From NCBI GenBank assembly GCA_016214345.1, contig JACROR010000025.1:1-51556 (forward strand): a stretch of DNA of 51,556 bases, given 5' to 3'. Under the pieces are notes generated by a model. It searched no databases. It saw nothing but the letters and a program-made list of their open reading frames with translations, and was not told where the DNA came from. This document shows, in pieces, positions 1,762 through 36,791 of the stretch (its first letter is position 1; the number at the start of each line of letters is the position of its first letter). Made by a program: the position numbers and the translations under genes. Origin of the DNA: Candidatus Niyogibacteria bacterium (GTDB lineage Bacteria; Patescibacteriota; Minisyncoccia; JACROR01).

Positions 1762-3630
1762 ATGAATATGAAAGATTTGAAAAACTTTTCTTTTAGTAAA
1801 AATATATTGGTCGCGACGCTTATTTTTTTAATTTTAGCGACGACTTATTCGCTGTTTGCCGGAGAATTTAAAAAGATTCCGGAAATTTCCTTTTCCGAGT
1901 TAGTGGCGAAAATTCAGGCCAGTGAAGTGGAAAAAGTAGCCATTCAGGGAAGCGATTTGAATGTTTCGCTCAAAGACGGAGGTCAAGCAACCGCCAAAAA
2001 AGAGAGCGAAGCGGCATTTTCGGAAATTTTGCTTAATTACGGAGTTAGCCGCGAAAAGATCGCGTCTTTGAATATTGTAATTCAGGAGCCGTCCGGTTTT
2101 TGGTTTTGGATGGGGACCATTTTGCCTTTTGCTTTGCCGTTTATTTTGATCGTGGTTTTCTTTTGGCTGGCGGCCAGGCAAGTTTCGCGCGCCAATGTCC
2201 AGGCTTTTACTTTTGGTCAGTCCAAGGCGAGGATGGTTATGCCCGATGACGGTAAAGATCGCGTAAGTTTCAAGGATGTGGCCGGAGTGAAAGAAGCGAA
2301 AGAGGAGCTGATGGAGATAGTTGATTTTTTGAAAAATCCCAAGAAATTTTTGGATATTGGCGCGCGCATTCCCAAGGGCGTGCTTTTGATGGGCCCTCCC
2401 GGGTCCGGCAAAACGCTTTTGGCGCGGGCGGTGGCGGGCGAGGCGCACGTGCCGTTTTTGCATATTTCCGGATCGGAATTCGTGGAGATGTTCGTGGGCG
2501 TGGGCGCGTCCCGGGTGCGGGATACTTTCAGTTTGGCGAAAAAATCCGCGCCGTCCATTATTTTTATTGATGAATTAGACGCCATTGGCCGACATCGCGG
2601 AGCGGGATTGGGCGGCGGGCATGACGAGCGGGAGCAAACCTTAAATCAGATTTTGGTGGAATTGGATGGCTTTGAGCCGCATGAAAAAGTGATAGTGATG
2701 GCGGCGACCAACCGGCCGGATATTTTGGACCCCGCGCTTTTGCGTCCCGGAAGATTTGACCGGAGGATCGTGGTTGACCTGCCGGATTTAAGCGGCAGGG
2801 AAGAGATTTTAAAAATCCACGCGCGAAAAAAGCCGTTGGCAAAGGATATTAATTGGCATACGATTGCCGAGCACACTCCCGGGCTTTCGGGGGCCGATCT
2901 GCAAAATATCGTGAATGAAGCGGCGATCTTGGCGGCGCGGGAGAACCGCAAAGAAGTAACCCAGCGGGATGTTTTGAATTCCATAGAAAAGGTTTTATTG
3001 GGTCCGGAAAGAAAAAGCCACATACTTTCTAAAAAAGAAAAAAGGATTTCCGCGTATCACGAAGCGGGGCACGCGCTGGTTGCGACCGTTTTGCCTCACG
3101 CCGATCCGGTGCACAAGGTTTCCATTGTTTCGCGGGGTCGCGCCGCCGGATATACCATGAAGTTGCCGGCGGAAGACAGGCATTTGTATTCGCGCGCGCA
3201 TTTTTTGGCGGAGCTCGCGGTTTCCGTGGGAGGTTACGCTTCCGAGAAAGAGATTTTTCATGAAATCACGACCGGAGCTTCCGATGATTTGCGCAGAGCT
3301 TCGGATATGGCGCGAGCCTTGGTGACGAAATACGGCATGTCCGAAAAGATCGGGCCCGTGGCTTTTGGCGGTGACGACGAGTTGGTTTTTTTGGGCAAAG
3401 AATTGGGGCACGCTAAAAATTATTCCGAAGAAGTTGCCGCTCTGATAGACCGAGAAGTGAGCCGTCTGATGCAAGACGCCTTTAAGACGGCCACGAAAAA
3501 AATAAAAGAGCATAAAAAAGCGCTGGACGCGATTGCCGATTATCTCACTGAAAAAGAAACCATAGAGCGCGCGGATTTTGATAATTTAATCGCTTCTGTC
3601 GGTTTGAAAGTTAAAAAAGAGCAAATATAA
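1762..3630 (+). CDS. ftsH: ATP-dependent zinc metalloprotease FtsH
   Basis: 622 aa with N-terminal TM segments. Walker A GPPGSGKT, Walker [32 protein letters not shown], zinc site HEAGHA. AGGAG RBS at 1754-1758. Confidence 0.95.
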
Positions 3631-3637
3631 AATAAAT

Positions 3638-3709
3638 GGATGCGTAGCTCAACGGCAGAGCATCGAGCTTATACCTCGGTGGTTCCAGGTTCGAATCCTG
3701 GCGCATCCA
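3638..3709 (+). tRNA. tRNA-Ile, anticodon UAU
   Basis: Hand-folded 72-nt cloverleaf. Acceptor GGATGCG/CGCATCC, D arm GCTC..GAGC, anticodon arm TCGAG-CTTATAC-CTCGG (anticodon TAT), T arm CCAGG-TTCGAAT-CCTGG, discriminator A. No encoded CCA. Confidence 0.85.
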
Positions 3710-3745
3710 CAACATTTGTTTTTATTTCCGAGTGAATACAGATTA

Positions 3746-3826
3746 TACGAAGTATACCTTACGAAGTATACCTCGGTGCCTGCCTGCCGGTAGGCAGGGT
3801 TCCAGGTTCGAATCCTAGTGCGCCCA
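3746..3826 (+). pseudogene. truncated copy of the tRNA-Ile 3' half carrying a 20-bp palindrome insertion
   Basis: 14-bp tandem repeat tacgaagtatacct x2 (3746-3773). Then cctcggtg + cctgcctgccggtaggcagg (3779-3798) + gttccaggttcgaatcctagtgcgccca. This mirrors tRNA-Ile nt 36-72 with 3 substitutions. No 5' half is present. Confidence 0.6.
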
Positions 3827-3866
3827 TAAATATGCAAAAAGCCGCATTTTATCGCGACTTTTTGTA

Positions 3867-3894
3867 TTGACTTATATGGCTTATATTCTATCAT
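3867..3894 (+). promoter_or_regulatory. candidate sigma70-like promoter for the proteasome operon
   Basis: TTGACT (3867-3872), 16-nt spacer, TATCAT (3889-3894), about 55 nt upstream of ATG 3951. Hexamer match only. Confidence 0.35.
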
Positions 3895-3950
3895 TTAAAG
3901 TAAATCGCTTTTTGACATTTGTATAAAACAATACGCGCTGACAGGAGGTA

Positions 3951-4154
3951 ATGATTATGGAAGAATTAATGGTTGCGTTGCGGGAATTGCTGGACGGGGG
4001 ACTTAATTTGTTGCAAGGCAGAATGACTAAAATTCAAAAAGAACGCATACGCAAATTTTTGGCTGACGCACGGGAACTTTTGGAAAAAATATCTGTTCGC
4101 GCCGCGGAATCACAGAATTTTGATGTTGCGCAGAAAAAAATATTGAACAACTGA
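3951..4154 (+). CDS. heptad-rich 67-aa ORF; probably the N-terminal coiled coil of the Mpa-like ATPase, detached by a -1 frameshift at an A7 run
   Basis: AGGAGG at 3943-3948. Helical heptad-like sequence. The downstream frame is already open from 4124 and continues the coiled coil (NIEQLTADISQLTADLEKA). Confidence 0.5.
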   Translation: MIMEELMVALRELLDGGLNLLQGRMTKIQKERIRKFLADARELLEKISVRAAESQNFDVAQKKILNN

Positions 4155-4183
4155 CCGCCGACATTTCGCAATTAACCGCTGAT

Positions 4184-4987
4184 TTGGAAAAAGCCAGAAC
4201 CACGATAGGCGGCAAGGTTGCCACCATGGAACAATTATATAAAGAAATACTTCGTTTAAGGGCGCTTATAGAGCCGCCCTTAAGTTACGGATATTTCGTC
4301 CGCGTGTCGCCCGAAGTGGTTCGCGGAGTGGATCCTATTTTGGGCGAACCCGAGCCGATTAAGGTGGATATTTATGAACCGCACGGAAAATTAATTACGG
4401 TAAATTTAAATCCTGCCATAAATGTTGCTTTGTTGCGGGTCGGACAACGGTTGCGGCTTTCTCCGCAGGGCAATGTGATGACAGTCTTAAATGAATTCGC
4501 GAATTTGGGAGTTACCGCCACGGTGGCTGATGTTTTGGGCAAATTGGTGCTGGTGAATTCTTCCATGGATGAACAGCGTCTTTTACAGGTCGCGGCCAAT
4601 GTAGATGCCACGCAGATCAAATCCGGTTCCAAGATTCTTTACGATCCGATTACGAATATGATTGTCGCCATACTTCCCAAAGAAGAAAAGAGCAGTTTGC
4701 AGATGGAAGAGGTTAAGGCGGTTACTTATAACAGTATAGGCGGCATGGCGGAACAAATCGCTCAATTTGAGGAAAATATAGTTTTTCCGCGGCTTTATCC
4801 GGCCATTTTTCAAAAGTACCAGACCGACGTGCCCAAGGGCGCCGCTTTTTACGGCCCTCCGGGTTGCGGCAAGACTCTTTTGGCAAGAGCCGCGGCTTAC
4901 CGCATAAAACAAGGCGATAAAAAAGTGGTAATTTTCGTGGCGAGCGGTTCGGAATTTCTCGTTAAATGGGTGGGTGATTCCGAGTAA
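4184..4987 (+). CDS. mpa: proteasome-associated AAA ATPase (Mpa/ARC-like), N-terminal part: coiled coil, OB region, Walker A
   Basis: The coiled coil ends in PPLSYGYFVRV (compare Mpa PPSGYGVLL), followed by a double OB-like region and Walker A GPPGCGKT. The ORF ends at in-frame TAA 4985-4987 within the conserved KWVGDSE-x-KVRE segment. The track start is TTG; the first ATG is at 4226. Confidence 0.85.
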   Translation: MEKARTTIGGKVATMEQLYKEILRLRALIEPPLSYGYFVRVSPEVVRGVDPILGEPEPIKVDIYEPHGKLITVNLNPAINVALLRVGQRLRLSPQGNVMTVLNEFANLGVTATVADVLGKLVLVNSSMDEQRLLQVAANVDATQIKSGSKILYDPITNMIVAILPKEEKSSLQMEEVKAVTYNSIGGMAEQIAQFEENIVFPRLYPAIFQKYQTDVPKGAAFYGPPGCGKTLLARAAAYRIKQGDKKVVIFVASGSEFLVKWVGDSE

Positions 4988-5038
4988 AAAGTTCGTGAGC
5001 CCGCCGAATACGCCAAAGCTCATCCGGATATCATAGTT

Positions 5039-5776
5039 TTGTATGTGGTGGATGAGATTGACGCGGTGTGCCGCACCAGGGGATCAAGCGGACATGCCGG
5101 AGTGAACGATTCCATTGTTACGCAATTCAATAGTTTGCTTGACGGTTTTGTGGAGATACCGAATTTAATTTTCATCGGCATTACCAACCGGTTGGATTTG
5201 CTGGACAGTTCGCTTTTGCGTCCCGGGCGCATGGATCTTCAATTAAAGATTCCTCGGCCTGATCGCAAGGGCGCCAAGGAAATTCTGAAAATTTATTTGC
5301 GGCCGGATTTGCCTTTTCACGCCAAATATTTTAACGCGTTGAAATATCCCGATTTAAGCAGTCCTGAAACCGTCGTAGGTTATTTGATTGAAAAGACGCT
5401 GGATCACATCTATGGAGAAGTTGGTCCGAATGATGAGCGTCGCCGCAAAATCGCGACCATTGAATTTTTGGATACGGAAATGAGGCAGACGCTTTATATG
5501 GGCGATCTTATTTCCGGAGCCGTATTAAAGAGCATAGCCAATCGCGCGAAATTAACTGCCGCGTTGGCGGAGAAAAACGGAAAATCTGCCGGCGTGCGCT
5601 TAAAATATTTGCATGACGCGGTAGACGAAGTATTCCGCACGGTGCGCGACCAGATAAGCAAGAGCGGTCCGGAAGAATGGGCGCGAATGGCCGACCTGCC
5701 GTTAGATAAGCCATTTAGAGTTATAGCCGAAAAAGATGATAATGACCCTGACAGCGGCTATAGTCGTACGGCGTAA
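5039..5776 (+). CDS. mpa: proteasome-associated AAA ATPase (Mpa/ARC-like), C-terminal part: Walker B, SRH, lid
   Basis: Same frame as 4184..4987, and the frame is open from 4988. Walker B VLYVVDEIDA, CRTRGSSG, ITNRLDLLDSSLLRPGRMDLQLKIPRPD. These align closely to my recollection of Mpa. Confidence 0.85.
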   Translation: MYVVDEIDAVCRTRGSSGHAGVNDSIVTQFNSLLDGFVEIPNLIFIGITNRLDLLDSSLLRPGRMDLQLKIPRPDRKGAKEILKIYLRPDLPFHAKYFNALKYPDLSSPETVVGYLIEKTLDHIYGEVGPNDERRRKIATIEFLDTEMRQTLYMGDLISGAVLKSIANRAKLTAALAEKNGKSAGVRLKYLHDAVDEVFRTVRDQISKSGPEEWARMADLPLDKPFRVIAEKDDNDPDSGYSRTA

Positions 5777-5795
5777 GTATTGACTTAGCATTAGT

Positions 5796-5826
5796 AAACT
5801 CTCATCATATGATGAGAGTTTTTTGG
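5796..5826 (+). terminator. rho-independent terminator-like hairpin between the ATPase and the Dop-like gene
   Basis: Perfect 20-bp palindrome ctctcatcatatgatgagag (5799-5818), extended by aaa/ttt and followed by a T-run. Confidence 0.55.
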
Positions 5827-5857
5827 TCTTTGAAATACGAAATAGACAGGAGGAATT

Positions 5858-7408
5858 ATGGCTTTGAGCAGTATTTTCGGTACGGAACATGAATACGGTA
5901 TTTTTGCGCCTGACGTAAAAAAATCCGGAGAAAATTATTATATGGCATCAAGACAGGTGTCATACGATATTGTGCGTTTAGGGGCGGATGTTATCGGCGG
6001 ATCAAACAGACAAGGCAGCCTGCCTATCTCCATGGAATCGCTTTTGCGGGAATATGGCTGGGATGCCAAGGATTTCATTGGCGGCAGAGATGTCGCTGAC
6101 GCGTTGCGTTATATAGGCGGTAGCGGCTATATGCTTTGGAACGGAGCGAGGTTTTATGTTGACGCAGGTCATCCGGAATATTCCACTCCGGAATGCAGTA
6201 CGGCTTACGAGCTTTTAGTCGCTGAAAAAGCGGGAGAGAGGATTGTGGAAGCGGCGGGAAAAAAAGCCGAAGGTTTAATGGGTCGTAGAATTTATCTGCA
6301 CAAAGATAATTCCGATCGCCACGGCCATAGTTACGCGGCGCATGAAAATTATCTGGTAACTCCGAAATTGTTTGATTTGCTGGCGCGCGCCGAAGCGTCC
6401 GGTATTTTTAACGCCTGGATTAATTTTTTGGTTACCCGGCAAATTTGGGCCGGAGCAGGGAAGGCAGGGTCTGATTTTGGCGATGAGGCAATTTTTCAAT
6501 TGTCCCAGCGCGCGGAGTTTTTTTCTCGGATCAGTTCGTTAAATACCATGCAATACAGGGGGATTGTTAACACCAGAGATAATTCTTACGCGGACGATTC
6601 ATCGCATAAACGTTTGCATGTCATTTTGGGCGATGCCAATATGTGTGATGTGGCGATTTTTTTGAAAGTCGGCGTGACCGCCTTGTTTCTCAAAATGTTG
6701 GAAGACGATTTTTTCGCGGAGCATAAAACTTTTTTGACGGAGCCGTTACGCTCTCCCTTAGAAGTTCTTCACGATATATCGGTTGACGCGGAAATGCGTA
6801 AAAAATTTTTGTTGCGGAACGAAAAACGTATCGGCGCGTTGGAGGCGCAGGAAGAAGTTTTACGGCTAATCAAAGAATACGGCGGACAAAACCTTTCTTT
6901 ATTAAACGACACGGAAAGAAAGGTGGCGGAACATTTTGAGGAGGTGATTATTCGTTTAAGGCGCGATCCATCTTCGCTTTACGGATGGCTGGATCACATT
7001 ACCAAGCGCGCGATAATCGCGCGGCAGCTTAATCGTTTGGGCAAAGATGCGGGCGATCCGCTCGCGGTGCGTTTGGATTTTCTCTATCACGATATAAACC
7101 GCTCCGCCGGGCTTTTTTATAAGCTCTGCGACGCGGGGCAGATTGTGCAAGTCGCGCAAGAAATTGATGTGATAAGGGCTATGACGGAACCTCCTGAAAC
7201 CACGCGGGCGTGGTTACGCAGCCAAATTTTGAAAAAATTTCACGGCTCTTACGGGCGTTGGAATTTTCTCAATGTGAAAATATCGGATGGCTGGCAAGGG
7301 CTGGTATTGGATAATCCTTCCGCGGGTAGCCGGCAAATGTGTGAAAAATTATTGGAAAAATCGCGTACGGCGGAAGATTTTTTTAAGTTGTGGAAGGAGG
7401 AAAAGTGA
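5858..7408 (+). CDS. dop: Pup ligase/deamidase family protein, Dop-like (long insert after the first strand)
   Basis: 516 aa. FGTEHEYG, NGARFYVDAGHPEYSTPEC, HENYLV, LVTRQIWAGAGK, INTRD, RLHVILGDANM. There are about 85 aa between TEHEYG and NGARFY, as in Dop. AGGAGG RBS. Confidence 0.8.
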   Translation: MALSSIFGTEHEYGIFAPDVKKSGENYYMASRQVSYDIVRLGADVIGGSNRQGSLPISMESLLREYGWDAKDFIGGRDVADALRYIGGSGYMLWNGARFYVDAGHPEYSTPECSTAYELLVAEKAGERIVEAAGKKAEGLMGRRIYLHKDNSDRHGHSYAAHENYLVTPKLFDLLARAEASGIFNAWINFLVTRQIWAGAGKAGSDFGDEAIFQLSQRAEFFSRISSLNTMQYRGIVNTRDNSYADDSSHKRLHVILGDANMCDVAIFLKVGVTALFLKMLEDDFFAEHKTFLTEPLRSPLEVLHDISVDAEMRKKFLLRNEKRIGALEAQEEVLRLIKEYGGQNLSLLNDTERKVAEHFEEVIIRLRRDPSSLYGWLDHITKRAIIARQLNRLGKDAGDPLAVRLDFLYHDINRSAGLFYKLCDAGQIVQVAQEIDVIRAMTEPPETTRAWLRSQILKKFHGSYGRWNFLNVKISDGWQGLVLDNPSAGSRQMCEKLLEKSRTAEDFFKLWKEEK

Positions 7409-9000
7409 AGAGAATATATTCCACGGAAGTTGAATATGGCAGCACGGTCATAAAATTATCCGATGGGAGCTGTCATTTTGATATTCCCGGAAGAGTTGAG
7501 TTAAAAAATGCCATGTTGACCAATGTGGTCAGTTCAAAGCGATTAATGGAGCAAGAATTCCAATTTCCGCAGTTTATGAAAAATGGCAGCAGGGCTTATC
7601 TGGATTTAAATCACATTGAATATGCCGCTCCGGAATGCATTACTCCGGAGGATGCCGTAGCCGCGGAATTGGCCGGCGGCGCTTTGCTTGCGGATGGTTT
7701 GGTTCACGATGGTTTTCGCTTGATTCTGATAAAAGACAATGTGGCTTTAAAAAAGTTTGAAACTGCCGGCAGGGATTATCGGGATGTTGGAAGCTATGCC
7801 GCGTTGCTTACTTCCTATGTTTATGACAGTGAGCAGAGATTGGCTACTTGCGGTTGCCATGAAAATTACTCGTTTAATTTGGATAGGATTGCCCGGCTTG
7901 CGCAATCGCCGTTATCTCCAAAAGAGAATCCCGCTTTTCGATTGGCGCATGCCGATTATTTAGCTCAAAAATTGGCCGCGTTTTTGATTGCCAGGCAGAT
8001 TTTTGCCGGTGCCGGAACTTTTTATTTCGGCAGGCCGTCTATTTCCGTGCGCAGCCTGTTTATTGATATGTTGCATAGCAATATTACTACACAACATAAG
8101 CCTCTCATTAATACCAAAAATGAACCGCATGGCAAAGTTCATCGTCTGCATTTGATTCTGGGAGACGGTAATATGGCGGAAGTCGCGTCTTTTCTTAAGT
8201 TGGGGACTACCGGTTTAGTGCTTCGGCTGCTGGAAGACGATAAAATAGGCCCGTCATTGGAGCTGGAGAATGTTTCTGACGCGACAGCTTTGGTTAAAGA
8301 GATCGCGTTTGATCGCGCTTGCTCCGCACGGTTGCTCAAGATGAAAAATGGCGACTTATTGACTGCCTGCGAATTGCAAAGAAAGTTTTTAGATCTCGCG
8401 GCGAGTCATTATCCCAAGGAAAACGACTCCGAAGCGGTTAGGTGTTCCACGGAAAAAGTATTTGAATGGTGGAATTATGTTTTGGACAAATTGGAGAACG
8501 GTGAAATGAAAGACTTGGTTGGCGTGCTTGATTGGCCGACTAAATTCCATCTTGGGGAATTGCTTTTGAAAAGATACGGGATTGCCATGTCTGATTTGCC
8601 GAAAGCGATTTTGCGGCACGAAAAACGCGCTGAAGTGGCGGCTCGTTTGAGAATGCTGGAACAGAGATACCACGAATTGTCGGAAAACGGATTATCTGCG
8701 CGTTTAAAGGCGCAAGGTATCATGACTCGTATAATTGATCCCGCTAAAATAATTTATTTCAAGGATCATTCTCCCCGAGAAACGCGGGCTTACGGGAGAA
8801 GCGAGTTGCTTAGGTTTGTGGAATCGCGATGTCCCGTTTTTCTCCTAAGAAAGTGCGATTGGGGTCAAATTACTTTGGTAAAAAAAGACGCTGATGAAAC
8901 CATCTCGGAAGTGTTGGAGTTTGAGATGGATGACCCGTTTGTGTCCATGGCCTTGCCAATAGAGCATTTTTTAGTTAAAAATGGTTGGAGAAAGGAGTGA
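7405..9000 (+). CDS. pafA: Pup ligase/deamidase family protein, PafA-like
   Basis: STEVEYG, NGSRAYLDLNHIEYAAPEC, CHENYS, IARQIFAGAG, INTKNEPH, RLHLILGDGNM. Likely GTG start at 7405 after AGGAGG, overlapping the dop stop (GTGA). The track ORF starts at 7390. Confidence 0.8.
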   Translation: MKRIYSTEVEYGSTVIKLSDGSCHFDIPGRVELKNAMLTNVVSSKRLMEQEFQFPQFMKNGSRAYLDLNHIEYAAPECITPEDAVAAELAGGALLADGLVHDGFRLILIKDNVALKKFETAGRDYRDVGSYAALLTSYVYDSEQRLATCGCHENYSFNLDRIARLAQSPLSPKENPAFRLAHADYLAQKLAAFLIARQIFAGAGTFYFGRPSISVRSLFIDMLHSNITTQHKPLINTKNEPHGKVHRLHLILGDGNMAEVASFLKLGTTGLVLRLLEDDKIGPSLELENVSDATALVKEIAFDRACSARLLKMKNGDLLTACELQRKFLDLAASHYPKENDSEAVRCSTEKVFEWWNYVLDKLENGEMKDLVGVLDWPTKFHLGELLLKRYGIAMSDLPKAILRHEKRAEVAARLRMLEQRYHELSENGLSARLKAQGIMTRIIDPAKIIYFKDHSPRETRAYGRSELLRFVESRCPVFLLRKCDWGQITLVKKDADETISEVLEFEMDDPFVSMALPIEHFLVKNGWRKE

Positions 9001-9005
9001 GGGAG

Positions 9006-9638
9006 ATGTTCGACAACTTAAAATCTACTACTGTGGTTTCCGCGGTTTACGGTTCCGGAGCGATTATTGCCGCGGACAGACAGGCCACCGGCGGTCATGA
9101 TTTGCATAAGTTGCCGTACGACGTGTTCAAAATCGTAGGGCTGACTGATTTTGCCATGGCCGGCATATCCGGTTTTCCCAAGACTTTGGAGACTTTGGAA
9201 GAAGTGAAGCGGGTGTTTGGTCTCTGGAAGATTTTATACGATCGGGAGGTGTCTATTGAGGGCCAGTTTAATTTTCTGAAACGGGTGCCTCTGATAGTTC
9301 CTGTGGGCAAAGAAGTAACGGTGAGTGGTATTTTAATGGCTGCTTTTGACCGTGATATTGGCAAGGGCAGAGTATTTTTATTTGATCCCGCGCTTGCTAT
9401 GGAGATTCCCAACTATGCGGCTATCGGCAGTGGCGGTACGGCATGTTTCAGCGCTTTGGAGCTTGGCCAATACCGTACGGATATGCGTTTTGAGGAAGCC
9501 GTCAGGAAAGTTTCCGGGGCGCTCCGATATTCTCATGAACATAATGCCGGAGTGGGAGATAATTTTTTCGGATTTCAATTGGATGCGGGCGGAATTAGGG
9601 AAATTTCTTCTTTGCTTAATGCCAAGGAGGTAGGATAA
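9006..9638 (+). CDS. prcB: 20S proteasome beta subunit (Ntn hydrolase, catalytic Thr)
   Basis: ATG 9006 gives MFDNLKS|TTVVSAVYGSGAIIAADRQATGG, a 7-aa propeptide followed by Thr1, with Asp17 and a Lys in FKI. GSG motif later in the sequence. The track ORF starts at 8985. Confidence 0.85.
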   Translation: MFDNLKSTTVVSAVYGSGAIIAADRQATGGHDLHKLPYDVFKIVGLTDFAMAGISGFPKTLETLEEVKRVFGLWKILYDREVSIEGQFNFLKRVPLIVPVGKEVTVSGILMAAFDRDIGKGRVFLFDPALAMEIPNYAAIGSGGTACFSALELGQYRTDMRFEEAVRKVSGALRYSHEHNAGVGDNFFGFQLDAGGIREISSLLNAKEVG

Positions 9639-10258
9639 TGGATCGTCAGTTTGGCAAAGAAAAGGCGCGTCGCGAATGGGTTGGTTCTAAATTAAAGAAT
9701 GCCGCTCCGATTGCGATAGTTCCTTTTAAGGACGGTTTGGCGGCGGTAACTGCCAAATCGCATTTTCGCAAAGTGCGCGCGGTTGACCAACATATTTTGT
9801 TTGCCGCTACGGGCGAATATGAGAGCGTAAATATATTGCACAGCTGGCTGGTGGAAGACGTGTTACGTATAATAAAAACCTTTTCCGAGCGCGATGTGTT
9901 TATGGAATCGGTTGTGGATAATCCAGACGGAGCAATAGCGCATGTGGCGCGCGCGTTTTATTCGGATCCGGTAGTCGCGGAATTAGCGCTGTTGTTTGCG
10001 GAAAAAGGGAAATTTTTCGGTGTGGTGATCAATTCGTTTGGAGAACGGAAATATTTAGACGGCGATGGCGCGGTTATCGGAGGCAAACCCGAAATGGGAG
10101 AATTGCTTACGAAGAAATTACGCGAAGCTCCGCCGTCCACGGAAAAAGAAGCTGTCGCGCTGGCAGCCGAAGTTTTGAAAATAAATGGCGAACAGCGTGA
10201 ATGGGAAGTCGGAGTTTTGTCCGGTTCCGGCATAAGGTTTACGAGAGGAGGAGAATAA
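9638..10258 (+). CDS. prcA: 20S proteasome alpha subunit (short, 206 aa)
   Basis: Proteasome-fold paralog without an N-terminal Thr. It directly follows prcB with a TAATG overlap. Assignment rests on position plus weak similarity. Confidence 0.7.
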   Translation: MDRQFGKEKARREWVGSKLKNAAPIAIVPFKDGLAAVTAKSHFRKVRAVDQHILFAATGEYESVNILHSWLVEDVLRIIKTFSERDVFMESVVDNPDGAIAHVARAFYSDPVVAELALLFAEKGKFFGVVINSFGERKYLDGDGAVIGGKPEMGELLTKKLREAPPSTEKEAVALAAEVLKINGEQREWEVGVLSGSGIRFTRGGE

Positions 10259-10422
10259 TGGGCGATCAGGATCGCAAAACGCGAAGGCGCCCGCCCGGCG
10301 TTAAACCGCCGAGCGAGGAAGATAAGCGCGAACAGGATAAGGAGATAGATAAGGGCATAGACGATCTTCTGAAAGAAGATGAAGATCTGGCACAGAGACG
10401 GAAAGAAGAAGAAGGGGAATAA
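10258..10422 (+). CDS. pup: Pup/UBact-like prokaryotic ubiquitin-like tag, C-terminal Gly-Glu
   Basis: 54 aa, 33 of them charged, with no hydrophobic core. IDKGIDDLLKEDEDL resembles the Mpa-binding helix of Pup. Ends ...EEGE. The ATG overlaps the prcA stop (TAATG). The track ORF start at 10201 lies inside prcA. Confidence 0.7.
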   Translation: MGDQDRKTRRRPPGVKPPSEEDKREQDKEIDKGIDDLLKEDEDLAQRRKEEEGE

Positions 10423-10446
10423 TTGTTCTTTGCAGAATTTTTATAA

Positions 10447-10482
10447 AAATCCCGCTATGATATGGCGGGATTTTTTTTTATT
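10447..10482 (+). terminator. rho-independent terminator of the proteasome operon
   Basis: Hairpin aatcccgc-tatgatatg-gcgggatt followed by a T9 run. Confidence 0.8.
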
Positions 10483-10494
10483 TTGTAAGATAAG

Positions 10495-12033
10495 ATGATG
10501 CCTTACGAATATTTAAATATAGCTACGGCGCGGGATCTCTCCGGCCAAGATCGCTTGATTTACCGTTTTTTTGAAATCATTCCCGGTTTGCTTTCCTGGG
10601 GAACTATCGCGGGGGCGATTATTTTTTCCTGGCTTTGGCCTGTTGGAATGGCGATATTCATTATCATTTTTGATATTTATTGGCTGATCAAAACCGCGTA
10701 TCTTTCAGCGCATTTGCGCGTGAATTGGCAGAGATTGCGTCATAATTTAGGCGCTGATTGGAAGTTAAAATTAGAAAATTTCAAATACGGTCACATTTGG
10801 CAGTTGGTGCTTCTGCCCATGTACCGAGAAGACCAAGAGGTGATAGAAGAGTCTTTGAATAAAATTATGGAAAGCAAATGGCCCCAGGAGCGGATGATAA
10901 TTGTTCTGGCGATTGAAGAGCGGGCCGGAGAGTACGCGCGGACAGTCGCGGAGGATGTGCAAAAAAAACATGCCGCGCGCTTCGCCCATTTTTTAGTAGT
11001 GTCGCATCCCGCGGATATGCCGGGCGAAATTCCCGGAAAGGGATCCAATATAGCTTTCGCGGCGCGGATGGTTAAAGAAAAAATTATAGATCCGGCCGGG
11101 ATTCCGCATGAAGATATTTTGGTTTCCGCTTTTGACATAGACACCCAGATTTATCCGCAATACTTTTTTTGTCTTACTTACCATTTTTTGACCGCGGACA
11201 ATCCGCATCGCGTGTCTTTTCAGCCGGTGCCTGTTTATAACAATAATATCTGGCAAGTGCCGGCGCTTTCCCGCGTGGTTGCCACCTCGGGAACTTTTTG
11301 GCAAATGATGCAGCAGGAAAGGCCTGAAAGATTGACCACATTTTCTTCGCATGCATTGAGTTTTAAGGCTCTGGAAGATATCGGTTATTGGCAAAAAAAT
11401 ATGGTATCCGAAGATTCGCGCATTTTTTGGAAAGCCTTTTTGCGTTTTGACGGAAATTACGGAGTGGTGCCGTTATCTTATCCCATTTCTTTGGACGCCA
11501 ACGCGGGAAGTAATTTTTGGTCTACGATCAAAAATGTATATAAACAACAGCGCCGCTGGACCTGGGGCGTGGAAAATCTTCCTTATTTTATGTTTGGCTG
11601 TCTGAAAAATAAAAAAATGCCTTTAGGCAAAAAGATTCGCGCGCTTTTATATCAATTGGAGGGTTTTTGGTCATTAACGACCAATCCGCTTTTAATTTTT
11701 ATATTGGGATGGCTGCCGCTTTTTTTGGGAGGGCAGGAGTTTAATGAGATGCTTTTATCTTATAATTTGCCGCGCGTGACGCGGACCTTGATGAGTATTG
11801 CCATGACCGGACTTATTGCTTCGGCGATTATTTCCACAAACCTGCTTCCGTCACGTCCGCCGCGTGCCCGCAAATCCAGCTATCTTTTTATGGTATTGCA
11901 GTGGCTTTTGATTCCCGTGACTATAATATTTTTTGGAGCGATTCCCGGATTGGACGCCCAGACGCGCCTGATGTTTGGCAAATATATGGGTTTTTGGGTA
12001 ACGCCCAAAGGGCGGCAACCAAAAGTTGGTTAG
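10495..12033 (+). CDS. membrane-embedded family 2 glycosyltransferase (processive, cellulose/chitin-synthase-like)
   Basis: 512 aa with multiple TM segments flanking a cytoplasmic GT-A domain. FDIDT (D-x-D-like) and the QQRRW (QxxRW) motif. Confidence 0.6.
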   Translation: MMPYEYLNIATARDLSGQDRLIYRFFEIIPGLLSWGTIAGAIIFSWLWPVGMAIFIIIFDIYWLIKTAYLSAHLRVNWQRLRHNLGADWKLKLENFKYGHIWQLVLLPMYREDQEVIEESLNKIMESKWPQERMIIVLAIEERAGEYARTVAEDVQKKHAARFAHFLVVSHPADMPGEIPGKGSNIAFAARMVKEKIIDPAGIPHEDILVSAFDIDTQIYPQYFFCLTYHFLTADNPHRVSFQPVPVYNNNIWQVPALSRVVATSGTFWQMMQQERPERLTTFSSHALSFKALEDIGYWQKNMVSEDSRIFWKAFLRFDGNYGVVPLSYPISLDANAGSNFWSTIKNVYKQQRRWTWGVENLPYFMFGCLKNKKMPLGKKIRALLYQLEGFWSLTTNPLLIFILGWLPLFLGGQEFNEMLLSYNLPRVTRTLMSIAMTGLIASAIISTNLLPSRPPRARKSSYLFMVLQWLLIPVTIIFFGAIPGLDAQTRLMFGKYMGFWVTPKGRQPKVG

Positions 12034-19239: not shown

Positions 19240-20673
19240 TTATTGGTTTGTGGTCGGCGTTACTGATGTAGGAATTGGTTTGGTTTCAGTTTGTGTTTGA
19301 GTAGTAGCGCGTTCCGCCTCTTTTATCTGCAATTGTTTGTAGTATTCTTCCATATTTATCGGTTTGGGCGTCAGTGTGGGCATTGGTTTTATCACATTGG
19401 CGCACGCGCCCTTGCTCGCGATAGCCGTTCCCGCAACTTTAGCCTTGCAGATGTTGCTGTAAGTTTTGCCGTCTACTCCGCATACCGGCTCCCAGGCTTT
19501 TGCACACGCAGCGATCGTTCCGGTCTGTGATTTGGCATCAATGCGTTTCTGTTCTTCTTTTCTCAATTCAATTCTTTTTTGGAGTAAAGATCCCACATCT
19601 TCGCCGTTTGATGTCGGTTGCGCAGAGCTTGTTTCCGCTTTCTCCGCGTCGATCTTTTCCAGATATGCTTTGCGCGTGGCATCATCTTCTATGTTCATCA
19701 ATCTTTTTTCCACTTTATTGATCACTTCTTCACGCGAAGATTTTATCTTTTCTTTAAGACCCGCGGGCAACCCTTGTTTTTCCAGTCGGTTGATAATTTC
19801 CGCCTGTTTCAATTCATCGCCACCGATTTTTTCCAGATAAGTTTTGAATTTGGTTTGATCTTCGGGAGACATCTGGTTTAGGTCGCCATGCAGGCGATTA
19901 AGCGCGTTTTCTTGGGCTCTTTGGATCGCTGCTTTGGCTTGTTCAGGCAATTTTTCTTCCAGTTTCAATAACACTTCCAAATTTTTGAAGTTTTTGAATT
20001 GGCCGCCCTTCTGTTCGTCCAGCGCTTTTTCCATTCTTTCTTTGATTTTTTCCGGGTTTTCTTTTTGCATCAATTCCGCGAATTTTTCCAGCGTTTTTTC
20101 CTGCGCTTTCAGCACTCTTTCCTTGGCCTGTTCAGGCAATTTTGAAGCAAGGTTATCCATCAATTTTTGGCGTTTTAGTTGGAAGTCGGTCAGTTTGTTT
20201 AACAATTTTTCGGCAGCCGGGTCCGTGGATGACAGCGCGCTTGCGGCATCTTTGGCTTTCTCCATTTCTGTTTCGTAGTTTTGCATCGCGCTATTTAAAA
20301 CAGCCGGGTCCTGCGTCTTCTCGGAGAGTTTTCGCGCTTCCACTAACTTTTCATTGGCGAATTGCGCCCGTAACTCCGCCTTTTTGATTTTGTTGAAAGT
20401 CAGAGCGGATTGGACGCCACGGCTCCAGTTTTTGAAGAAATAAAACGGGCTGTCCGGAAGAACGGTCGGTTCGGCAACGTTCAAGTCTGTCGCGGTTACG
20501 GTTTGGTCCGCCGCCACAGCAGCATCTACCTGGCTGTTGGTTGCGGCCGCGGCATCGGTTACGACGTTAGTCGCGGTGTCGGTTACGGTCGCGGCCTCTT
20601 CCGCGAAAGCGAAAGAAACGCCTGCGAGCAACACAAATATTGATAATAACGCTATTTTTGTCTTCATATTCAT
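19240..20673 (-). CDS. secreted coiled-coil protein with a C-terminal Kazal-type protease-inhibitor-like domain
   Basis: Signal peptide MNMKTKIALLSIFVLLAGVSFAFA. Long Lys/Glu-rich helical region. C-terminal CAKAWEPVCGVDGKTYSNICKAKVAGTAIASKGAC matches the Kazal C-x-PVCG-x-DG-x-TY-x-N-x-C pattern. Confidence 0.7.
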   Translation of the reverse strand: MNMKTKIALLSIFVLLAGVSFAFAEEAATVTDTATNVVTDAAAATNSQVDAAVAADQTVTATDLNVAEPTVLPDSPFYFFKNWSRGVQSALTFNKIKKAELRAQFANEKLVEARKLSEKTQDPAVLNSAMQNYETEMEKAKDAASALSSTDPAAEKLLNKLTDFQLKRQKLMDNLASKLPEQAKERVLKAQEKTLEKFAELMQKENPEKIKERMEKALDEQKGGQFKNFKNLEVLLKLEEKLPEQAKAAIQRAQENALNRLHGDLNQMSPEDQTKFKTYLEKIGGDELKQAEIINRLEKQGLPAGLKEKIKSSREEVINKVEKRLMNIEDDATRKAYLEKIDAEKAETSSAQPTSNGEDVGSLLQKRIELRKEEQKRIDAKSQTGTIAACAKAWEPVCGVDGKTYSNICKAKVAGTAIASKGACANVIKPMPTLTPKPINMEEYYKQLQIKEAERATTQTQTETKPIPTSVTPTTNQ

Positions 20674-25937: not shown

Positions 25938-27065
25938 ATGGAAGACACATCCTTTCTAAAAAGATTGTTGTCCGGAAAATTTTTGATTGATCTTTGGCAA
26001 AAAGAAAGCGAAAGCATTCTTGGCATTGATTTGGGCTCTTCTTCGCTTAAAGTGGTGCAGATACGCAAAACCAAAGAGCGCGCGGTTTTAGAAACTTACG
26101 GGGAATTGAGCGTGGCGCATTACGCGGGAACGGATATGGGCAAGGCGGCGATTTTGCCCGAAGATAAGGCAGTGGAGATGATCGCGGATGCCGTGAAAGA
26201 ATCCGGAGCCAAGTCAACTGACGCGGTAGCGTCCATTTCGCTCCGCAACAGTTTTGTTACGGTCATAGACATGCCCGTGATGTCCGATAAAGAATTGGCA
26301 AAGTCTATTGCCTACGAGGCAAGGCGTTATATTCCGGTTCCTATTTCCGAAGTGGAGATGGATTGGTGGATTTTGCCTCATGGGATAGAAACAGAGGGCG
26401 AAGAAACCGAAATTGCCAAGAAAAAAACCACTGTTCCGGTATTGCTGGTCGCGATTCATAAAAATGTTTTAGACCAGCAGAAAAACATCATTAGGAGCGC
26501 CAATTTGAAGTTAAAAACTTTTGAGGTGGAAATATTCAGTCTGGCGCGCGCCTGCTTGGGCCGGGAACTTGTTCCGGTGTTAATCATTGACTTGGGAGCG
26601 TCTGCCACCAAAATGACCATAGTGGATTACGGGATAGTGAGAATGGCGCATAGCTTTGATAGCGGAGCGCAAGACATTACCGCGACATTATCCAGAGCGC
26701 TACGCATAGATTTTGGCAGGGCGGAAAAGTTGAAGCGGGAAGTCGGACTTTCGGACCGTCCGGAGCACAAAGAGATGAAACAGGTCATGAGCCCGATGCT
26801 GGATTATGTTTTCGCGGAAGCCGCGCGCTTGTCGTCCGATTACCGGATGAGACACGGCAGGTCCATTAGCCGCGTGATATTGGCGGGCGGCGGGGCGTTA
26901 CTCCCGGGCATCACGGAGTACGCGGTGAACAGGTTCGGCGTGGAAGTAAGCATGGCCAATCCGTTTACTAAAGTGGAGTATCCGGCATTTTTGGAGCCGG
27001 CGCTTCGTGAAATTGGACCTAATTTCGCGTCAGCCATAGGTTTGGCCCTGCGCGGACTTAAATAA
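25938..27065 (+). CDS. pilM: type IV pilus assembly protein PilM (actin-like ATPase fold)
   Basis: 375 aa. ILGIDLGSSSLKVVQI phosphate-1 motif and IIDLGASATK. First gene of the pilus cluster. Confidence 0.85.
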   Translation: MEDTSFLKRLLSGKFLIDLWQKESESILGIDLGSSSLKVVQIRKTKERAVLETYGELSVAHYAGTDMGKAAILPEDKAVEMIADAVKESGAKSTDAVASISLRNSFVTVIDMPVMSDKELAKSIAYEARRYIPVPISEVEMDWWILPHGIETEGEETEIAKKKTTVPVLLVAIHKNVLDQQKNIIRSANLKLKTFEVEIFSLARACLGRELVPVLIIDLGASATKMTIVDYGIVRMAHSFDSGAQDITATLSRALRIDFGRAEKLKREVGLSDRPEHKEMKQVMSPMLDYVFAEAARLSSDYRMRHGRSISRVILAGGGALLPGITEYAVNRFGVEVSMANPFTKVEYPAFLEPALREIGPNFASAIGLALRGLK

Positions 27066-27106
27066 CGGTTATTAAAAATTATTTAACAGAGTAAATTAAG
27101 GCGAAT

Positions 27107-27673
27107 ATGTCTTTAGATACCACGTCTTTTATATCAAAAACCACAGTTTTACCCAGCCCGGTTTATAAATCAAAGGGCTTGGGTTTTTTGACCATAATAT
27201 CCGTCGTGCTTTTAGTCGTGTCGTTCGCGGCTTTGGCGGGCGTGTGGCTTTATATGGGAGTTCTGCGGGGAGACATGGACAGGTTGAGCGCTGATTTTGA
27301 CAAAACTAAAAAAGAATTTGACATCGCGTCCATTCAGGATTTGTCCGCCGTATCAACCTCTATTGATGTTTCCAAAAAAATATTGCAATCGCACGTCGCC
27401 GTATCCAGGATAATGGATATGTTGGAGCAAAATACTTTGCCCGACGTAAGATTTTCCAACTTTAATTACGGGGGAGGCGGAGGTAATCTGATAACTCTCG
27501 CGGGAGATGCTAAAAGTTACACTACGCTGGCGGAGCAGGCATTGGTCTTGGAGAGTATCAAAAATGTTGAAAGTTTGTCGCTTTCCAATTTATCTTTGCG
27601 GGGAGGCGGGCGCGTAGGTTTTGATTTGTTCATTACTATCAAACCGGACCTTATAAACTATCAGGTAAAATAA
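27107..27673 (+). CDS. pilN: PilN-like bitopic pilus alignment protein
   Basis: 188 aa with a single N-proximal TM helix, then coiled coil. Lies directly after pilM. Confidence 0.5.
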   Translation: MSLDTTSFISKTTVLPSPVYKSKGLGFLTIISVVLLVVSFAALAGVWLYMGVLRGDMDRLSADFDKTKKEFDIASIQDLSAVSTSIDVSKKILQSHVAVSRIMDMLEQNTLPDVRFSNFNYGGGGGNLITLAGDAKSYTTLAEQALVLESIKNVESLSLSNLSLRGGGRVGFDLFITIKPDLINYQVK

Positions 27674-27677
27674 ATTC

Positions 27678-28220
27678 ATGAAGCAAGCTATCGTGGCGGT
27701 CATCTTTATAAGCGCGGCAGTAGGAGTATTTTGGGGCTGGACCATGCCCATGTTGAGCCAAATGCAAGCTTTACAGAAAGATATAGCCGATCTGAATGGA
27801 GTGATGTCCCGTTTTTATGATTTGCGGCAGATTAAAAATGATTTGACCACCACTTATAATTCCATAAGTTCCAAAGATTACGCGCAATTAAATCAGATCG
27901 CCCCTCATTCCGTCAAAGAAAGCGACTTGATCGTGGAATTTGAAGGACTGGCTTCAGCCAATGGAATGGTGTTGAAACGCGTGGACATCAAACCCACGCC
28001 CAAAGAAGAAAGGGGCGTAAAGCTCGCCACCAAAGATTCGGCGGAAGGTATTTCCATCAATTTGGTGATAGACGGTTCTTACGCTTCGCTCAAGTCATTT
28101 TTGCGGCAGGCGGAAGATTCGCTTCGCGTGATAGACGTGAGGGCGCTGTCTTTTTTGGCGGGAGAAAAAGATTTTTATGAATTTAACATAACGGCCGAGG
28201 CCTATTTTCAAAAACCATGA
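27678..28220 (+). CDS. pilO: PilO-like bitopic pilus alignment protein
   Basis: 180 aa with an N-terminal TM helix, a coiled coil and a ferredoxin-like C-terminus. Assignment is by position. Confidence 0.5.
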   Translation: MKQAIVAVIFISAAVGVFWGWTMPMLSQMQALQKDIADLNGVMSRFYDLRQIKNDLTTTYNSISSKDYAQLNQIAPHSVKESDLIVEFEGLASANGMVLKRVDIKPTPKEERGVKLATKDSAEGISINLVIDGSYASLKSFLRQAEDSLRVIDVRALSFLAGEKDFYEFNITAEAYFQKP

Positions 28221-28510
28221 AGACTAATATTTTGACCATCATTTTAGTAATAGCGGTATTGGTGTTCGGCTACGTCGGTTATGGCTATTTTAAGCCCGCG
28301 CCGGCTTTAAGCGTGGAAAAAACCTCTTCGGTCGCGGGATCAAGCACGGAAACGCGCGCCCTTTTGGATGCTTTATCCATCATGCAGGGTTTGCGCATTG
28401 ACACGGGATTTTTCAACAGTCCCGTGTACAAGAACTTAAAAGATCTTTCTCCGGAAGTTAGCATTCCGTCTGTGAGGGGCAGAACCAATCCATTTCTACC
28501 TCTTCAGTAA
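28217..28510 (+). CDS. small membrane-anchored pilus-cluster protein (hypothetical)
   Basis: 97 aa with an N-terminal TM helix. There is a 4-nt overlap with the upstream gene. Confidence 0.45.
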   Translation: MKTNILTIILVIAVLVFGYVGYGYFKPAPALSVEKTSSVAGSSTETRALLDALSIMQGLRIDTGFFNSPVYKNLKDLSPEVSIPSVRGRTNPFLPLQ

Positions 28511-28537
28511 AATAATAGTTTCAAAGATATTCAAATT

Positions 28538-30250
28538 ATGGACGATACAAGATTTGCCGATCTTCTGGTAGAGCGCGGCGTTATAACGGCCGATAGCTTG
28601 AATAAAGCGAAACAAGAGGCATCCTCCCGAGGCGTTACGCTAGGGGATATTTTGCTGGAACGCGGAGTGCCGGAGGCGGAAATTTTGACGGTCAAGGGCG
28701 AGATCGTGGGCGTACCCACCAAATCTTTGGGCAGGAAAAAAGTTCCTTTTGAGGTGTTAAAAATGATCCCCGAAGAATCGTCCAAACATTATCAATTCGT
28801 GCCGATCGGTCTGGTGGACGGGGTTTTGGAAATTGGCATGTTAAATCCGCAAGATATTACGGCGCGGGAGGCCCTGAATTTCATTGCCGCGAAAGTGAAC
28901 ATGCCGTTTAAAATTTTTTTGATAGCCAAGTCGGACTTTGACGTAGTGGTTGAAGAATATAAAAGTTTGGGCGGAGAGGTGACCAAGGCGTTGGGCGAAT
29001 TGGAACAGATGCTGACCGAAGCGGAAAAAGCCGTACCGGATAAAACCAAAAAAGAACTTGGATTTATTGAGGAAACTCCGGTCACCAAAATGGTGGCGGT
29101 GATGTTGCGGCATGCCGTAGAGGGCCACGCTTCGGATATTCATATAGAACCGCAAAGGAATCAGTTGCGGGTGCGATTTCGCGTGGACGGCGTGCTACAC
29201 ACCAGTTTGGTGTTGCCCTTGAAGGTGCACGAAGCAGTGGTTTCCAGAATAAAAATACTCACCAATATGCAGCTGGATGAAAAAAGAAAGCCGCAGGATG
29301 GGCGTTTTGGCGCCATGATAGAAGGGCGCGAGATAGACTTCCGCGTGTCCACTTTCCCCACTTATTTTGGAGAAAAAGCAGAAATAAGAATTTTGGATAC
29401 CGAGGAAGGAGTTAAAAGTTTGGAACAGCTCGGCTTGTCGGGACGAAATTTAGAAACTATAAAAGAAGGGTTAAAGCGTCCGCATGGGCTTATTTTAATC
29501 ACCGGTCCGACCGGATCGGGCAAGACCAGCACGCTTTATTCCATGCTGAAAATGATCAACCAGGAAGGAGTTAACGTAGTTAGTTTGGAAGATCCCGTGG
29601 AATACAATATTGAGGGTGTGGGCCAGTCCCAAGTACGCCCCGAAATAGGATATGATTTCGCGAGCGGCTTGCGTTCCATTCTCCGTCAGGATCCGGACAT
29701 TATAATGGTGGGCGAAATACGAGATAAAGAAACCGCGCAGTTAGCCATTCATGCCGCGCTTACCGGACATTTGGTTTTATCCACGCTTCATACCAATTCG
29801 GCCATCGGAGTAATTCCCCGGCTTATTGACATGGGAGTGGATCCGTATCTTATAGCGCCGACTTTGATTTCCGCCATTGCCCAAAGATTAGTTAGGGTTT
29901 TGTGCGAGGATTCCAAAAAAGAGATCGCGGTGGATGGTTTGGTAAAAGAGAAGTTGGAAAAAGAAATAGTCGGCGTTCCGATTTCCGCCCAAGAGGACTT
30001 TAAACTGCCTCCGCGGATTTATCAGGCGTCGCCTTCGCCGCAATGTCCCAAAGGAACTTCGGGGCGAGTAGGAGTTTTTGAAGTTATTAATATGACGCCG
30101 GGACTGGAGCATTTGGTTCTGGCCAAACCCAACGAGTTGGAGGTTTTAGACGAGGCGCGCAAACAGGGAATGATCACCATGCGCGAAGACGGCATTTTAA
30201 AGGTTTTTCAAGGAAAGGTGGGTCTGGAAGAATTAGAGGAACTTGTATGA
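28538..30250 (+). CDS. pilB: type IV pilus extension ATPase PilB (GspE family)
   Basis: 570 aa. N-terminal T2SSE_N-type domain, Walker A GPTGSGKTS, Asp box, Walker B DPDIIMVGEIRD, His box TGHLVLSTLHTN. Confidence 0.92.
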   Translation: MDDTRFADLLVERGVITADSLNKAKQEASSRGVTLGDILLERGVPEAEILTVKGEIVGVPTKSLGRKKVPFEVLKMIPEESSKHYQFVPIGLVDGVLEIGMLNPQDITAREALNFIAAKVNMPFKIFLIAKSDFDVVVEEYKSLGGEVTKALGELEQMLTEAEKAVPDKTKKELGFIEETPVTKMVAVMLRHAVEGHASDIHIEPQRNQLRVRFRVDGVLHTSLVLPLKVHEAVVSRIKILTNMQLDEKRKPQDGRFGAMIEGREIDFRVSTFPTYFGEKAEIRILDTEEGVKSLEQLGLSGRNLETIKEGLKRPHGLILITGPTGSGKTSTLYSMLKMINQEGVNVVSLEDPVEYNIEGVGQSQVRPEIGYDFASGLRSILRQDPDIIMVGEIRDKETAQLAIHAALTGHLVLSTLHTNSAIGVIPRLIDMGVDPYLIAPTLISAIAQRLVRVLCEDSKKEIAVDGLVKEKLEKEIVGVPISAQEDFKLPPRIYQASPSPQCPKGTSGRVGVFEVINMTPGLEHLVLAKPNELEVLDEARKQGMITMREDGILKVFQGKVGLEELEELV

Positions 30251-30687
30251 CGCAACCACAAAAAGGAATGACAATTTTGGAAATAATGACGAGCGCGGCG
30301 CTGGTAATTATAATCGGCGGAGCATTTTTTTTCGTATTCTGGAAAATGAGCGCGAAAAGCAGAGACTTACAACGGGAGCAGGACGTAAAACAAATACAAA
30401 ACGCTTTGAATCTTTACATAACCAGCGTAGGCCGTTTTCCGGTTTGCGGCGGTGACCTAATCGTAAACGGGATTGATGATTGTCTGACCGTGGAATTGAA
30501 ACGGCTCGGTGTTTTAGCCGGAGTACCGGCGGATCCGTTAAAGAATAAGGACGGAAAGTGCGGCGCGCCGGATTCCCATGTTTATTGTTATGGGTCTTTG
30601 GACGGATCGGATTATGTATTAAAATATAATTTAGAGACGGACGGTATTGCCGGGCACGCGTCCGGCTGGAATTCAGTCAGCCCTTGA
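30247..30687 (+). CDS. prepilin-type N-terminal domain protein (pilin-like)
   Basis: MTQPQKG|MTILEIMTSAALVIIIG gives a Gly-1/Glu+5 class III signal. The ATGA overlaps the pilB stop. Confidence 0.55.
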   Translation: MTQPQKGMTILEIMTSAALVIIIGGAFFFVFWKMSAKSRDLQREQDVKQIQNALNLYITSVGRFPVCGGDLIVNGIDDCLTVELKRLGVLAGVPADPLKNKDGKCGAPDSHVYCYGSLDGSDYVLKYNLETDGIAGHASGWNSVSP

Positions 30688-30826
30688 TTGCTAAACTTTG
30701 AATATTTGAATAAAATATAGAACTTTATTTACCCCGCCCTCTAACGCGCTAATATGAGTAATTTTAATAAAAATGCTAAAATAAAAAAGCTAACAATTAT
30801 TAAATAAAAATAAGAAAATCAATCAT

Positions 30827-31897: not shown

Positions 31898-31935
31898 TTT
31901 GGAAACCGAGTTTCCAAAAATGTTAGAATAGAATT

Positions 31936-33144: not shown

Positions 33145-33230
33145 TACTGTTATCCACAGCCGTCTTTATGGTGAAGTTTTCTGACGAAGTGATATAATAT
33201 ATACGGGTTTAGTTTTTAGTTTTTAGTTTT

Positions 33231-33719: not shown

Positions 33720-33828
33720 CTTCTTTAATTTTAATTTTGAGTTAAAGAGTTGCGCCTCGCTTTGTTAAAAAAGATTGAATTAGTATACATAAGGTCGAAA
33801 GTTTTAATTTTTACGATTTAAAAAAACT

Positions 33829-36784: not shown

Positions 36785-36791
36785 TGATAAA

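Follow-up and report, generated by a model that had tools for sequence, protein, structure and literature searches.

A twice-interrupted Mpa-like proteasome ATPase gene in a Patescibacteria genome, probably a recent loss-of-function allele

A proteasome ATPase gene that is broken twice, at the head of a cluster of intact genes, raises the question whether the gene is dead, whether its sequence is wrong or whether the cell reads through the interruptions. The gene is found in contig JACROR010000025.1 (assembly GCA_016214345.1) of Candidatus Niyogibacteria bacterium, an uncultured member of the Patescibacteria (candidate phyla radiation, CPR); the complete NCBI contig of 51,556 bp was analysed and is referred to as the window. 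Positions 3957-5776 of the forward strand hold one gene for an Mpa/ARC-like proteasome ATPase in three pieces, which would head a Pup/UBact-proteasome cluster. A first-pass annotation made from the sequence alone had described both breaks and offered four causes: recent pseudogenisation, a consensus or assembly error, strain heterogeneity or programmed recoding. We consider it probable that the gene is a real and very recent loss-of-function allele (a pseudogene or null allele) and not a case of programmed recoding.

The interrupted gene and its intact relatives

The following features could be placed in the region of the gene, where P0001-P0003 denote the intact ATPases of three close relatives and L002, L003, L084 and L085 contigs with their loci:

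3943..3948, + strand: Shine-Dalgarno sequence AGGAGG, 8 nt 5' of ATG 3957, aligned with GGAGGTG of L002
3957..4154, + strand: fragment 1, N-terminal coiled-coil part, 65 aa (from ATG 3957) or 67 aa (from ATG 3951)
4124..4987, + strand: fragment 2, in the -1 frame, with the remaining coiled coil, the OB domains and the start of the AAA module, ending with TAA 4985-4987
4134..4140, + strand: homopolymer of seven A (A7), the likeliest site of a one-base deletion, inside the 28-nt shift interval
4985..4987, + strand: in-frame nonsense codon TAA, residue 346 of the repaired protein
4988..5776, + strand: fragment 3, in the same frame as fragment 2, with Walker B, sensor 1, arginine finger, lid and C-terminal region

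The open reading frame (ORF) 3951-4154 encodes 67 aa with the C-terminus ...AQKKILNN, is terminated by an out-of-frame TGA at 4152-4154 and is colinear with residues 1-61 of P0001. The true start is probably ATG 3957 rather than ATG 3951, since AGGAGG is located 8 nt upstream of it, the start of the nearest relative aligns with it and both the NCBI and the Logan gene calls give 65 aa. The -1 frame is open from 4124, immediately 3' of TGA 4121-4123, and reads CCAEKNIEQLTADISQLTADLEKARTT; because it opens there and the first frame is closed by TGA 4152-4154, the change of frame is confined to the 28 nt between 4124 and 4151. The annotated ORF starts of fragment 2 are TTG 4184 (267 aa) or ATG 4226 (253 aa), P0121 being the Logan gene call of this fragment. 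Across the second break the frame reads ...KWVGDSE, the stop and then KVREPAEYAKAHPDIIVLYVVDEIDA, and stays open from 4988 to a TAA ending at 5776, with Walker A (GPPGCGKT, 4853-4876) located 5' and Walker B (IVLYVVDE, 5033-5056) 3' of the interrupting TAA. In the public NCBI record the pieces of the gene appear as individual proteins (65, 267 and 243 aa), and the Logan calls are of 65, 253 and 245 aa. All coordinates of the first-pass annotation, that is the ORF 3951-4154, the A7 run at 4134-4140, the -1 frame from 4124 and the TAA at 4985-4987, were found to be correct.

A six-frame scan showed this to be the sole real gene of the window in which two long open segments of the same frame (287 and 262 codons) are split by a single stop. 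The other same-strand candidates were merely adjacent genes, and a second suspected in-frame TAA, at 28508, turned out to be where a separate gene for a small membrane protein, upstream of a PilB-like ATPase, normally terminates.

When one A was added to the A7 run and the stop was masked, a repaired protein of 606 aa from ATG 3957 was obtained. It is 74% identical, at 100% coverage (E = 1.4e-296), to the intact P0001 from a Patescibacteria metagenome-assembled genome, also of 606 aa, and shows 55% identity to the intact P0002 (557 aa) and 49-51% to the intact P0003 (613 aa). The single extra A suggested at first pass hence restores a protein that is colinear with P0001, of equal length and with the heptad register kept; a crude heptad scan gave one register over residues 52-87, spanning the repaired junction at residues 63/64. 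The coiled coil in front of the PP motif had been estimated to about 115 aa but is actually 108 aa when counted from 3951 and 106 aa from 3957.

The ATPase is a single intact ORF (557-613 aa) in all three close relatives; in none of them is it split or preceded by a separate small ORF. The gene order is common to the window and the three relatives and consists of FtsH, the ATPase, two genes of the Pup_ligase family, proteasome beta, a second subunit-sized gene, an acidic protein of 54-66 aa and a GT2 glycosyltransferase; RecG comes next in the window, L002 and L084, and the contig of L085 stops after GT2. The proposal that the three ORFs are parts of a single gene is thereby supported, and no relative was found in which a separate small ORF is followed by an ATPase start downstream. 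A functional split AAA protein was rejected: the break separates Walker A from Walker B, the first possible starts of fragment 3 (TTG 5039 and GTG 5045) have no Shine-Dalgarno sequence in front of them and none of the relatives is split.

Larger collections were also searched. A profile search of 1.84 billion representatives recovered the P0002 cluster and, from the window itself, the 253-aa fragment; the other matches were intact relatives at a greater distance (572-658 aa), with no sign of recurrent splitting of the ATPase within the clade. Scanning genome contigs with the generic motifs YGPPGCGK and EFL[VI]KWVG resulted in 80 matches, from actinobacterial, Nitrospira, Poribacteria and other Mpa loci with 29-33% identity and no close relative among them. 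Scans of metagenome contigs with WVGDSExKVREPA(E/D)YAK and with DSIVTQFNxxLDGF gave 0 matches each; since the former pattern does match the window, L001-L003 and L084-L086 (including L085, from a JGI sample), that metagenome-contig collection is without this clade.

The lesion sites, timing and competing explanations

The codon orthologous to the TAA is CAA (Gln) in both of the independent contigs available for the nearest relative (L002 and L003). The other two relatives have CAT and GCG, so that the codon varies among the relatives and is a sense codon in every one. Judging from this alignment a single C-to-T transition (CAA to TAA) would explain the stop, and the flanking VGDSE-x-KVREPAEYAK is a conserved clade signature with no sign of decay. 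At the shift site L002 has GAGCAAATTATC, with one base more in the alignment and no A-run; the run is absent also from L003, both contigs having one continuous frame, and the ATPase of L084 and L085 is likewise a single ORF. The first-pass annotation had suggested that orthologues be compared for A8 and a sense codon, of which the sense codon was seen in all (CAA, CAT, GCG) and the A-run was missing in the nearest relative. All relatives examined are free of the TAA, and among the orthologues compared the lesions are thus confined to this genome.

A model consistent with these comparisons includes a 1-bp deletion, most likely from A8 to A7 at 4134-4140, and an independent C-to-T change that would have turned CAA (Gln) into TAA at 4985-4987, the two lesions together being expected to block the synthesis of a complete AAA module. 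The frameshift alone may be partly bypassed by rare slippage of the polymerase or the ribosome, the TAA presumably not to any useful extent.

To date the inactivation the ratio of nonsynonymous to synonymous substitution rates (dN/dS) was calculated against the L002 orthologue by the Nei-Gojobori method:

ATPase, N-terminal coil before the shift: 0.83 (23% identity)
ATPase, N-terminal coil after the shift: 0.31
ATPase, OB domains: 0.098
ATPase, AAA module up to the stop: 0.100
ATPase, 261 codons after the stop: 0.110
Neighbouring genes: 0.04-0.28

As the ratio is low on both sides of the stop we infer that the inactivation is very recent and that normal purifying selection acted on the gene during almost the whole period after the lineages split. 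The high values of the N-terminal coil, which are not peculiar to this genome, agree with a coiled coil under loose constraint.

Purifying selection on the gene body both before and after the stop would also be seen if the gene of the organism were intact (A8, CAA) and one or both lesions were artefacts of low coverage or sequencing chemistry, and miscalled homopolymer lengths are a known class of error. An assembly error in the sense of an assembler artefact, as had been listed at first pass, is excluded by the independent Logan assembly of run SRR12113407, made with a different pipeline, in which the contig SRR12113407_1022806 is identical to window 2632-11571 over 8,940 bp, with 0 mismatches, 0 gaps and both lesions included. 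If the two assemblies stem from the same reads their agreement still allows for read-level errors. About 78 further A/T runs of at least 7, mostly intragenic, occur in the window and none of them disturbs a frame. No signs of truncation were seen in the 39 other genes that were scanned against Pfam, the matched domains being essentially complete in those with matches. The chance that the second of two random errors in 51.6 kb falls in the same 1.8-kb gene is about 3.5%, while two lesions in one gene is the pattern expected once the gene has lost its function. Since few random substitutions give rise to a stop codon, a stop-creating C-to-T error would imply many silent substitution errors elsewhere. 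The agreement of the assemblies and the window-wide statistics favour the lesions being genuine mutations, and a sequencing or consensus error is regarded as unlikely, if still worth keeping in mind. Heterogeneity of the population overlaps with a recent loss of function, the lesions being real in both cases and the sole difference being allele frequency: they would be present in one sub-population, an intact allele would coexist and the assemblers would have given the majority path or a chimeric one. Metagenome assemblers do collapse variant bubbles into one path, and lesions this recent are perhaps not fixed. Against this, no intact protein more than 74% identical was found in a collection of 15 billion proteins, which includes the Logan assembly of SRR12113407, and we judge such heterogeneity to be distinctly improbable. 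Exact-protein look-ups of the neighbouring genes in other samples returned the single Logan contig from SRR12113407 and no other.

Programmed recoding would combine slippage at the A7 run, transcriptional or -1 ribosomal, with readthrough of the TAA and give a small, regulated supply of full-length ATPase. Runs of A support slippage of the RNA polymerase and re-pairing of tRNA-Lys (PMC5009743), the product of a -1 shift is exactly the colinear protein and the frame beyond both sites is under purifying selection relative to L002. Neither site is conserved, however: the TAA, whose presence in relatives was said at first pass to favour recoding, occurs in none of them, and neither does the A-run. 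The incoming frame over the run is CAG AAA AAA ATA and the heptamer G-AAA-AAA does not conform to the canonical X-XXY-YYZ pattern of slippery sites; upon a -1 shift the A-site tRNA-Lys re-pairs perfectly and the P-site tRNA would land on GAA. No Shine-Dalgarno-like (GGAGG-like) element was found in the 20 nt upstream of the run and no stimulatory RNA structure downstream of either site, with folding z-scores of -0.97 to +0.09 versus shuffled sequence (0.09 for 60 nt and -0.97 for 100 nt downstream of the A7 run). TAA is the main stop codon here, terminating 29 of the 44 genes of the window (TGA 11, TAG 4), and is therefore not reassigned; no other in-frame stop inside a real gene and no suppressor tRNA (UUA anticodon) among the 7 tRNAs were found within the window, and UAA is the least leaky of the bacterial stop codons. 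Slippage at runs of A is well documented (PMC5009743) and at the A7 run may correct the frame in a minor part of the products, with the UAA still 282 codons further on; two inefficient events in series would leave negligible product. Programmed recoding is thus very improbable, and the same low standing is given to the idea that the interruptions are tolerated or used, rare slippage and rare UAA readthrough forming a throttle on proteasomal degradation in a CPR bacterium with a tiny genome, or, in a related reading, the A-run serving as a phase-variable on/off switch for the unfoldase. Of the four causes first offered, recent pseudogenisation is the one favoured by the comparisons that the first-pass annotation itself had proposed, and recoding is left without support from TAA usage, RNA structure, suppressor tRNAs in the window or conservation.

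The gene resembles the young bacterial pseudogenes of endosymbionts in having a one-base indel in an A-run of an otherwise conserved gene, with an intact frame continuing (reviewed in PMC5009743). Some homopolymer-frameshifted pseudogenes of endosymbionts are partly rescued by polymerase slippage at poly(A) tracts (PMC5009743). Unlike these, the ATPase gene has a run of just 7 A and a second, hard lesion downstream, and since the TAA follows slippage cannot restore the protein. The documented cases of slippage rescue involve tracts longer than 7 A.

Some points weigh against a recent loss of function. The gene otherwise looks healthy, with a low dN/dS and a conserved promoter-like site and Shine-Dalgarno sequence, as an error or recoding would also predict; if the NCBI and Logan contigs share reads, both may carry an error of the reads themselves or a consensus drawn from low coverage; the population may include cells with an intact allele; and the close relatives are three in number, the nearest at 74% amino acid identity, so that the comparison stops short of truly close strains.

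Family identity and the surrounding cluster

In Mpa the coiled coil binds the Pup tag and the protein unfolds substrates into the proteasome. The Mpa-like identity proposed at first pass was borne out, as the best NCBIfam model for the repaired protein is TIGR03689 (pup_AAA; profile positions 2-498 of 512), with 316.2 bits, which is below the curated cutoff of 504.75 so that the equivalog cutoff is not reached, and residues 108-581 align with solved Mpa structures (7px9, 7ljf; E ~6e-59). Pfam matches were obtained for PF17758 (weak, residues 116-176), PF16450 (190-243) and PF00004 (300-435). The order of domains, an N-terminal coiled coil (heptad pattern at residues 1-108), tandem OB domains and one AAA module, is that of Mpa/ARC in Actinobacteria (structures 7px9, 5kzf, 5kwa). 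The AAA motifs GPPGCGKT, VVDE, KWVG (pore loop), TNR (sensor) and RPGR are all present and invariant in the alignment and are divided by the TAA.

The ATPase also adjoins, like Mpa, genes for Dop/PafA-like proteins, proteasome beta and alpha and a small Pup-like tag. It differs from actinobacterial Mpa in being just 30-33% identical, in the double interruption found in this genome and in the lack of the C-terminal GQYL (HbYX-like) tail for docking to the 20S proteasome, as it ends in ...DSGYSRTA (window 5740-5776). The C-termini of the window protein and P0001-P0003 are ...SGYSRTA, ...GFNSMA, ...FSSKA and ...GFNSRM, while GQYL forms the C-terminus of the actinobacterial sequences aligned with them; the GQYL/YL tail is missing also in the more distant relatives P0122, P0123, P0126 and P0128. 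Because the ATPases of the clade are without the GQYL docking motif, the gene is here termed Mpa-like in its presumed mode of action and is not filed as a member of the strict equivalog family. In place of GQYL a conserved segment, EEWAR(M/I/L)..L....RPF(R/E/H)(V/I), is found near the C-terminus in the clade and in wider relatives.

The remaining features of the cluster are:

3867..3894, + strand: promoter-like site (TTGACT, 16 nt, TATCAT), consensus match only, upstream of the ATPase gene
5796..5821, + strand: terminator-like hairpin with an 11-bp stem, AAACTCTCATCATATGATGAGAGTTT, followed by a T run, consensus match only, between the ATPase and Dop-like genes
5858-7408, + strand: Dop-like gene, intact; best model TIGR03688, 310 bits, below the equivalog cutoff
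7405-9000, + strand: PafA-like gene, intact; best model TIGR03686, 184 bits, below the equivalog cutoff
9006-9638, + strand: proteasome beta, intact; PF00227, below the equivalog cutoff
9638-10258, + strand: presumed proteasome alpha from its position in the cluster, intact
10258-10422, + strand: candidate Pup/UBact-like tag, 54 aa, acidic, intact, ending ...RRKEEEGE

The region of the promoter-like site is well conserved with the nearest relative (3890-3925, compared with L002 and L003). Between the terminator-like hairpin and the next gene promoter-like sites can be found (consensus match only), and together these elements suggest that the ATPase gene may form its own transcription unit and that the cluster is not one operon. 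The downstream genes are probably still expressed, since the ATPase gene has a terminator-like hairpin of its own and is followed by promoter-like sites. They are intact, as the first-pass annotation had stated, and between 5858 and 10422 show dN/dS values of 0.10-0.28 versus L002.

The Dop-like and PafA-like genes match PF03136 (Pup_ligase), and the beta subunit keeps the Thr1 and Asp17 pattern (TTVVSAVYGSGAIIAAD). For the gene 9638-10258 no Pfam or NCBIfam match was found, and likewise for its orthologues in L002 and L085, while the orthologue in L084 matches PF00227; it is either a very divergent alpha subunit or something else. The 54-aa protein has no match in Pfam or NCBIfam, neither of which has a UBact profile, and its orthologue in L002 ends in ...KKRKEEGGE. 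Going by size, composition and position it looks like a candidate tag of the Pup/UBact type, whose C-terminal Glu would need no deamidation. Since the proteins of the cluster have their best matches to TIGR03689, TIGR03688, TIGR03686 and the beta models below the cutoffs, the cluster appears to be a divergent, non-actinobacterial Pup-like proteasome system. Pup-like 'UBact' proteasome clusters were reportedly described in Gram-negative bacteria and candidate phyla by Lehmann and co-workers in 2017. The cluster resembles those in that its last gene, behind those for the proteasome subunits, encodes a short, acidic candidate tag ending in Glu and in that the host is not an actinobacterium.

Upstream of the cluster, in the region 3638-3829, the 3' half of a tRNA-Ile gene (anticodon UAU, 3638-3710) is duplicated in part after the gene: 3767-3778 is an exact repeat of 3670-3681 and 3798-3829 repeats 3681-3712 at 84%. 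A GC-rich palindromic insert of 19 nt (3779-3797) is situated between the repeats, and a 14-nt tandem duplication covers 3746-3773. The partial copy was not called as a tRNA by ARAGORN or Rfam and may be what is left of an integration or a duplication at the tRNA gene. Elsewhere in the window, 25938-37821 holds a large type IV pilus cluster with PilM-, PilB- and PilT-like ATPases, a PilC-like protein, a prepilin peptidase and at least five proteins with an N-terminal methylation motif; such clusters are common in Patescibacteria. On the minus strand, 19240-20673 encodes a protein of 477 aa with a DUF5667 domain and a short match to a Kazal-type serine protease inhibitor (PF00050, E = 2.6e-07), a domain that is unusual in bacteria.

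The direct finding is of little consequence, being an ordinary case of a recently inactivated gene, or null allele, in a single metagenome-assembled genome, and for annotation it means that the three NCBI proteins of 65, 267 and 243 aa should be one pseudogene. If the lesions are fixed, the lineage would have just lost its unfoldase, with the Dop-like, PafA-like, 20S and tag genes still intact, and would thus represent a natural one-component knockout of a Pup-like system that is non-actinobacterial and poorly studied. The rare Patescibacteria group of Mpa-like ATPases without the GQYL tail, to which the gene belongs, is arguably of greater interest than the breakage.

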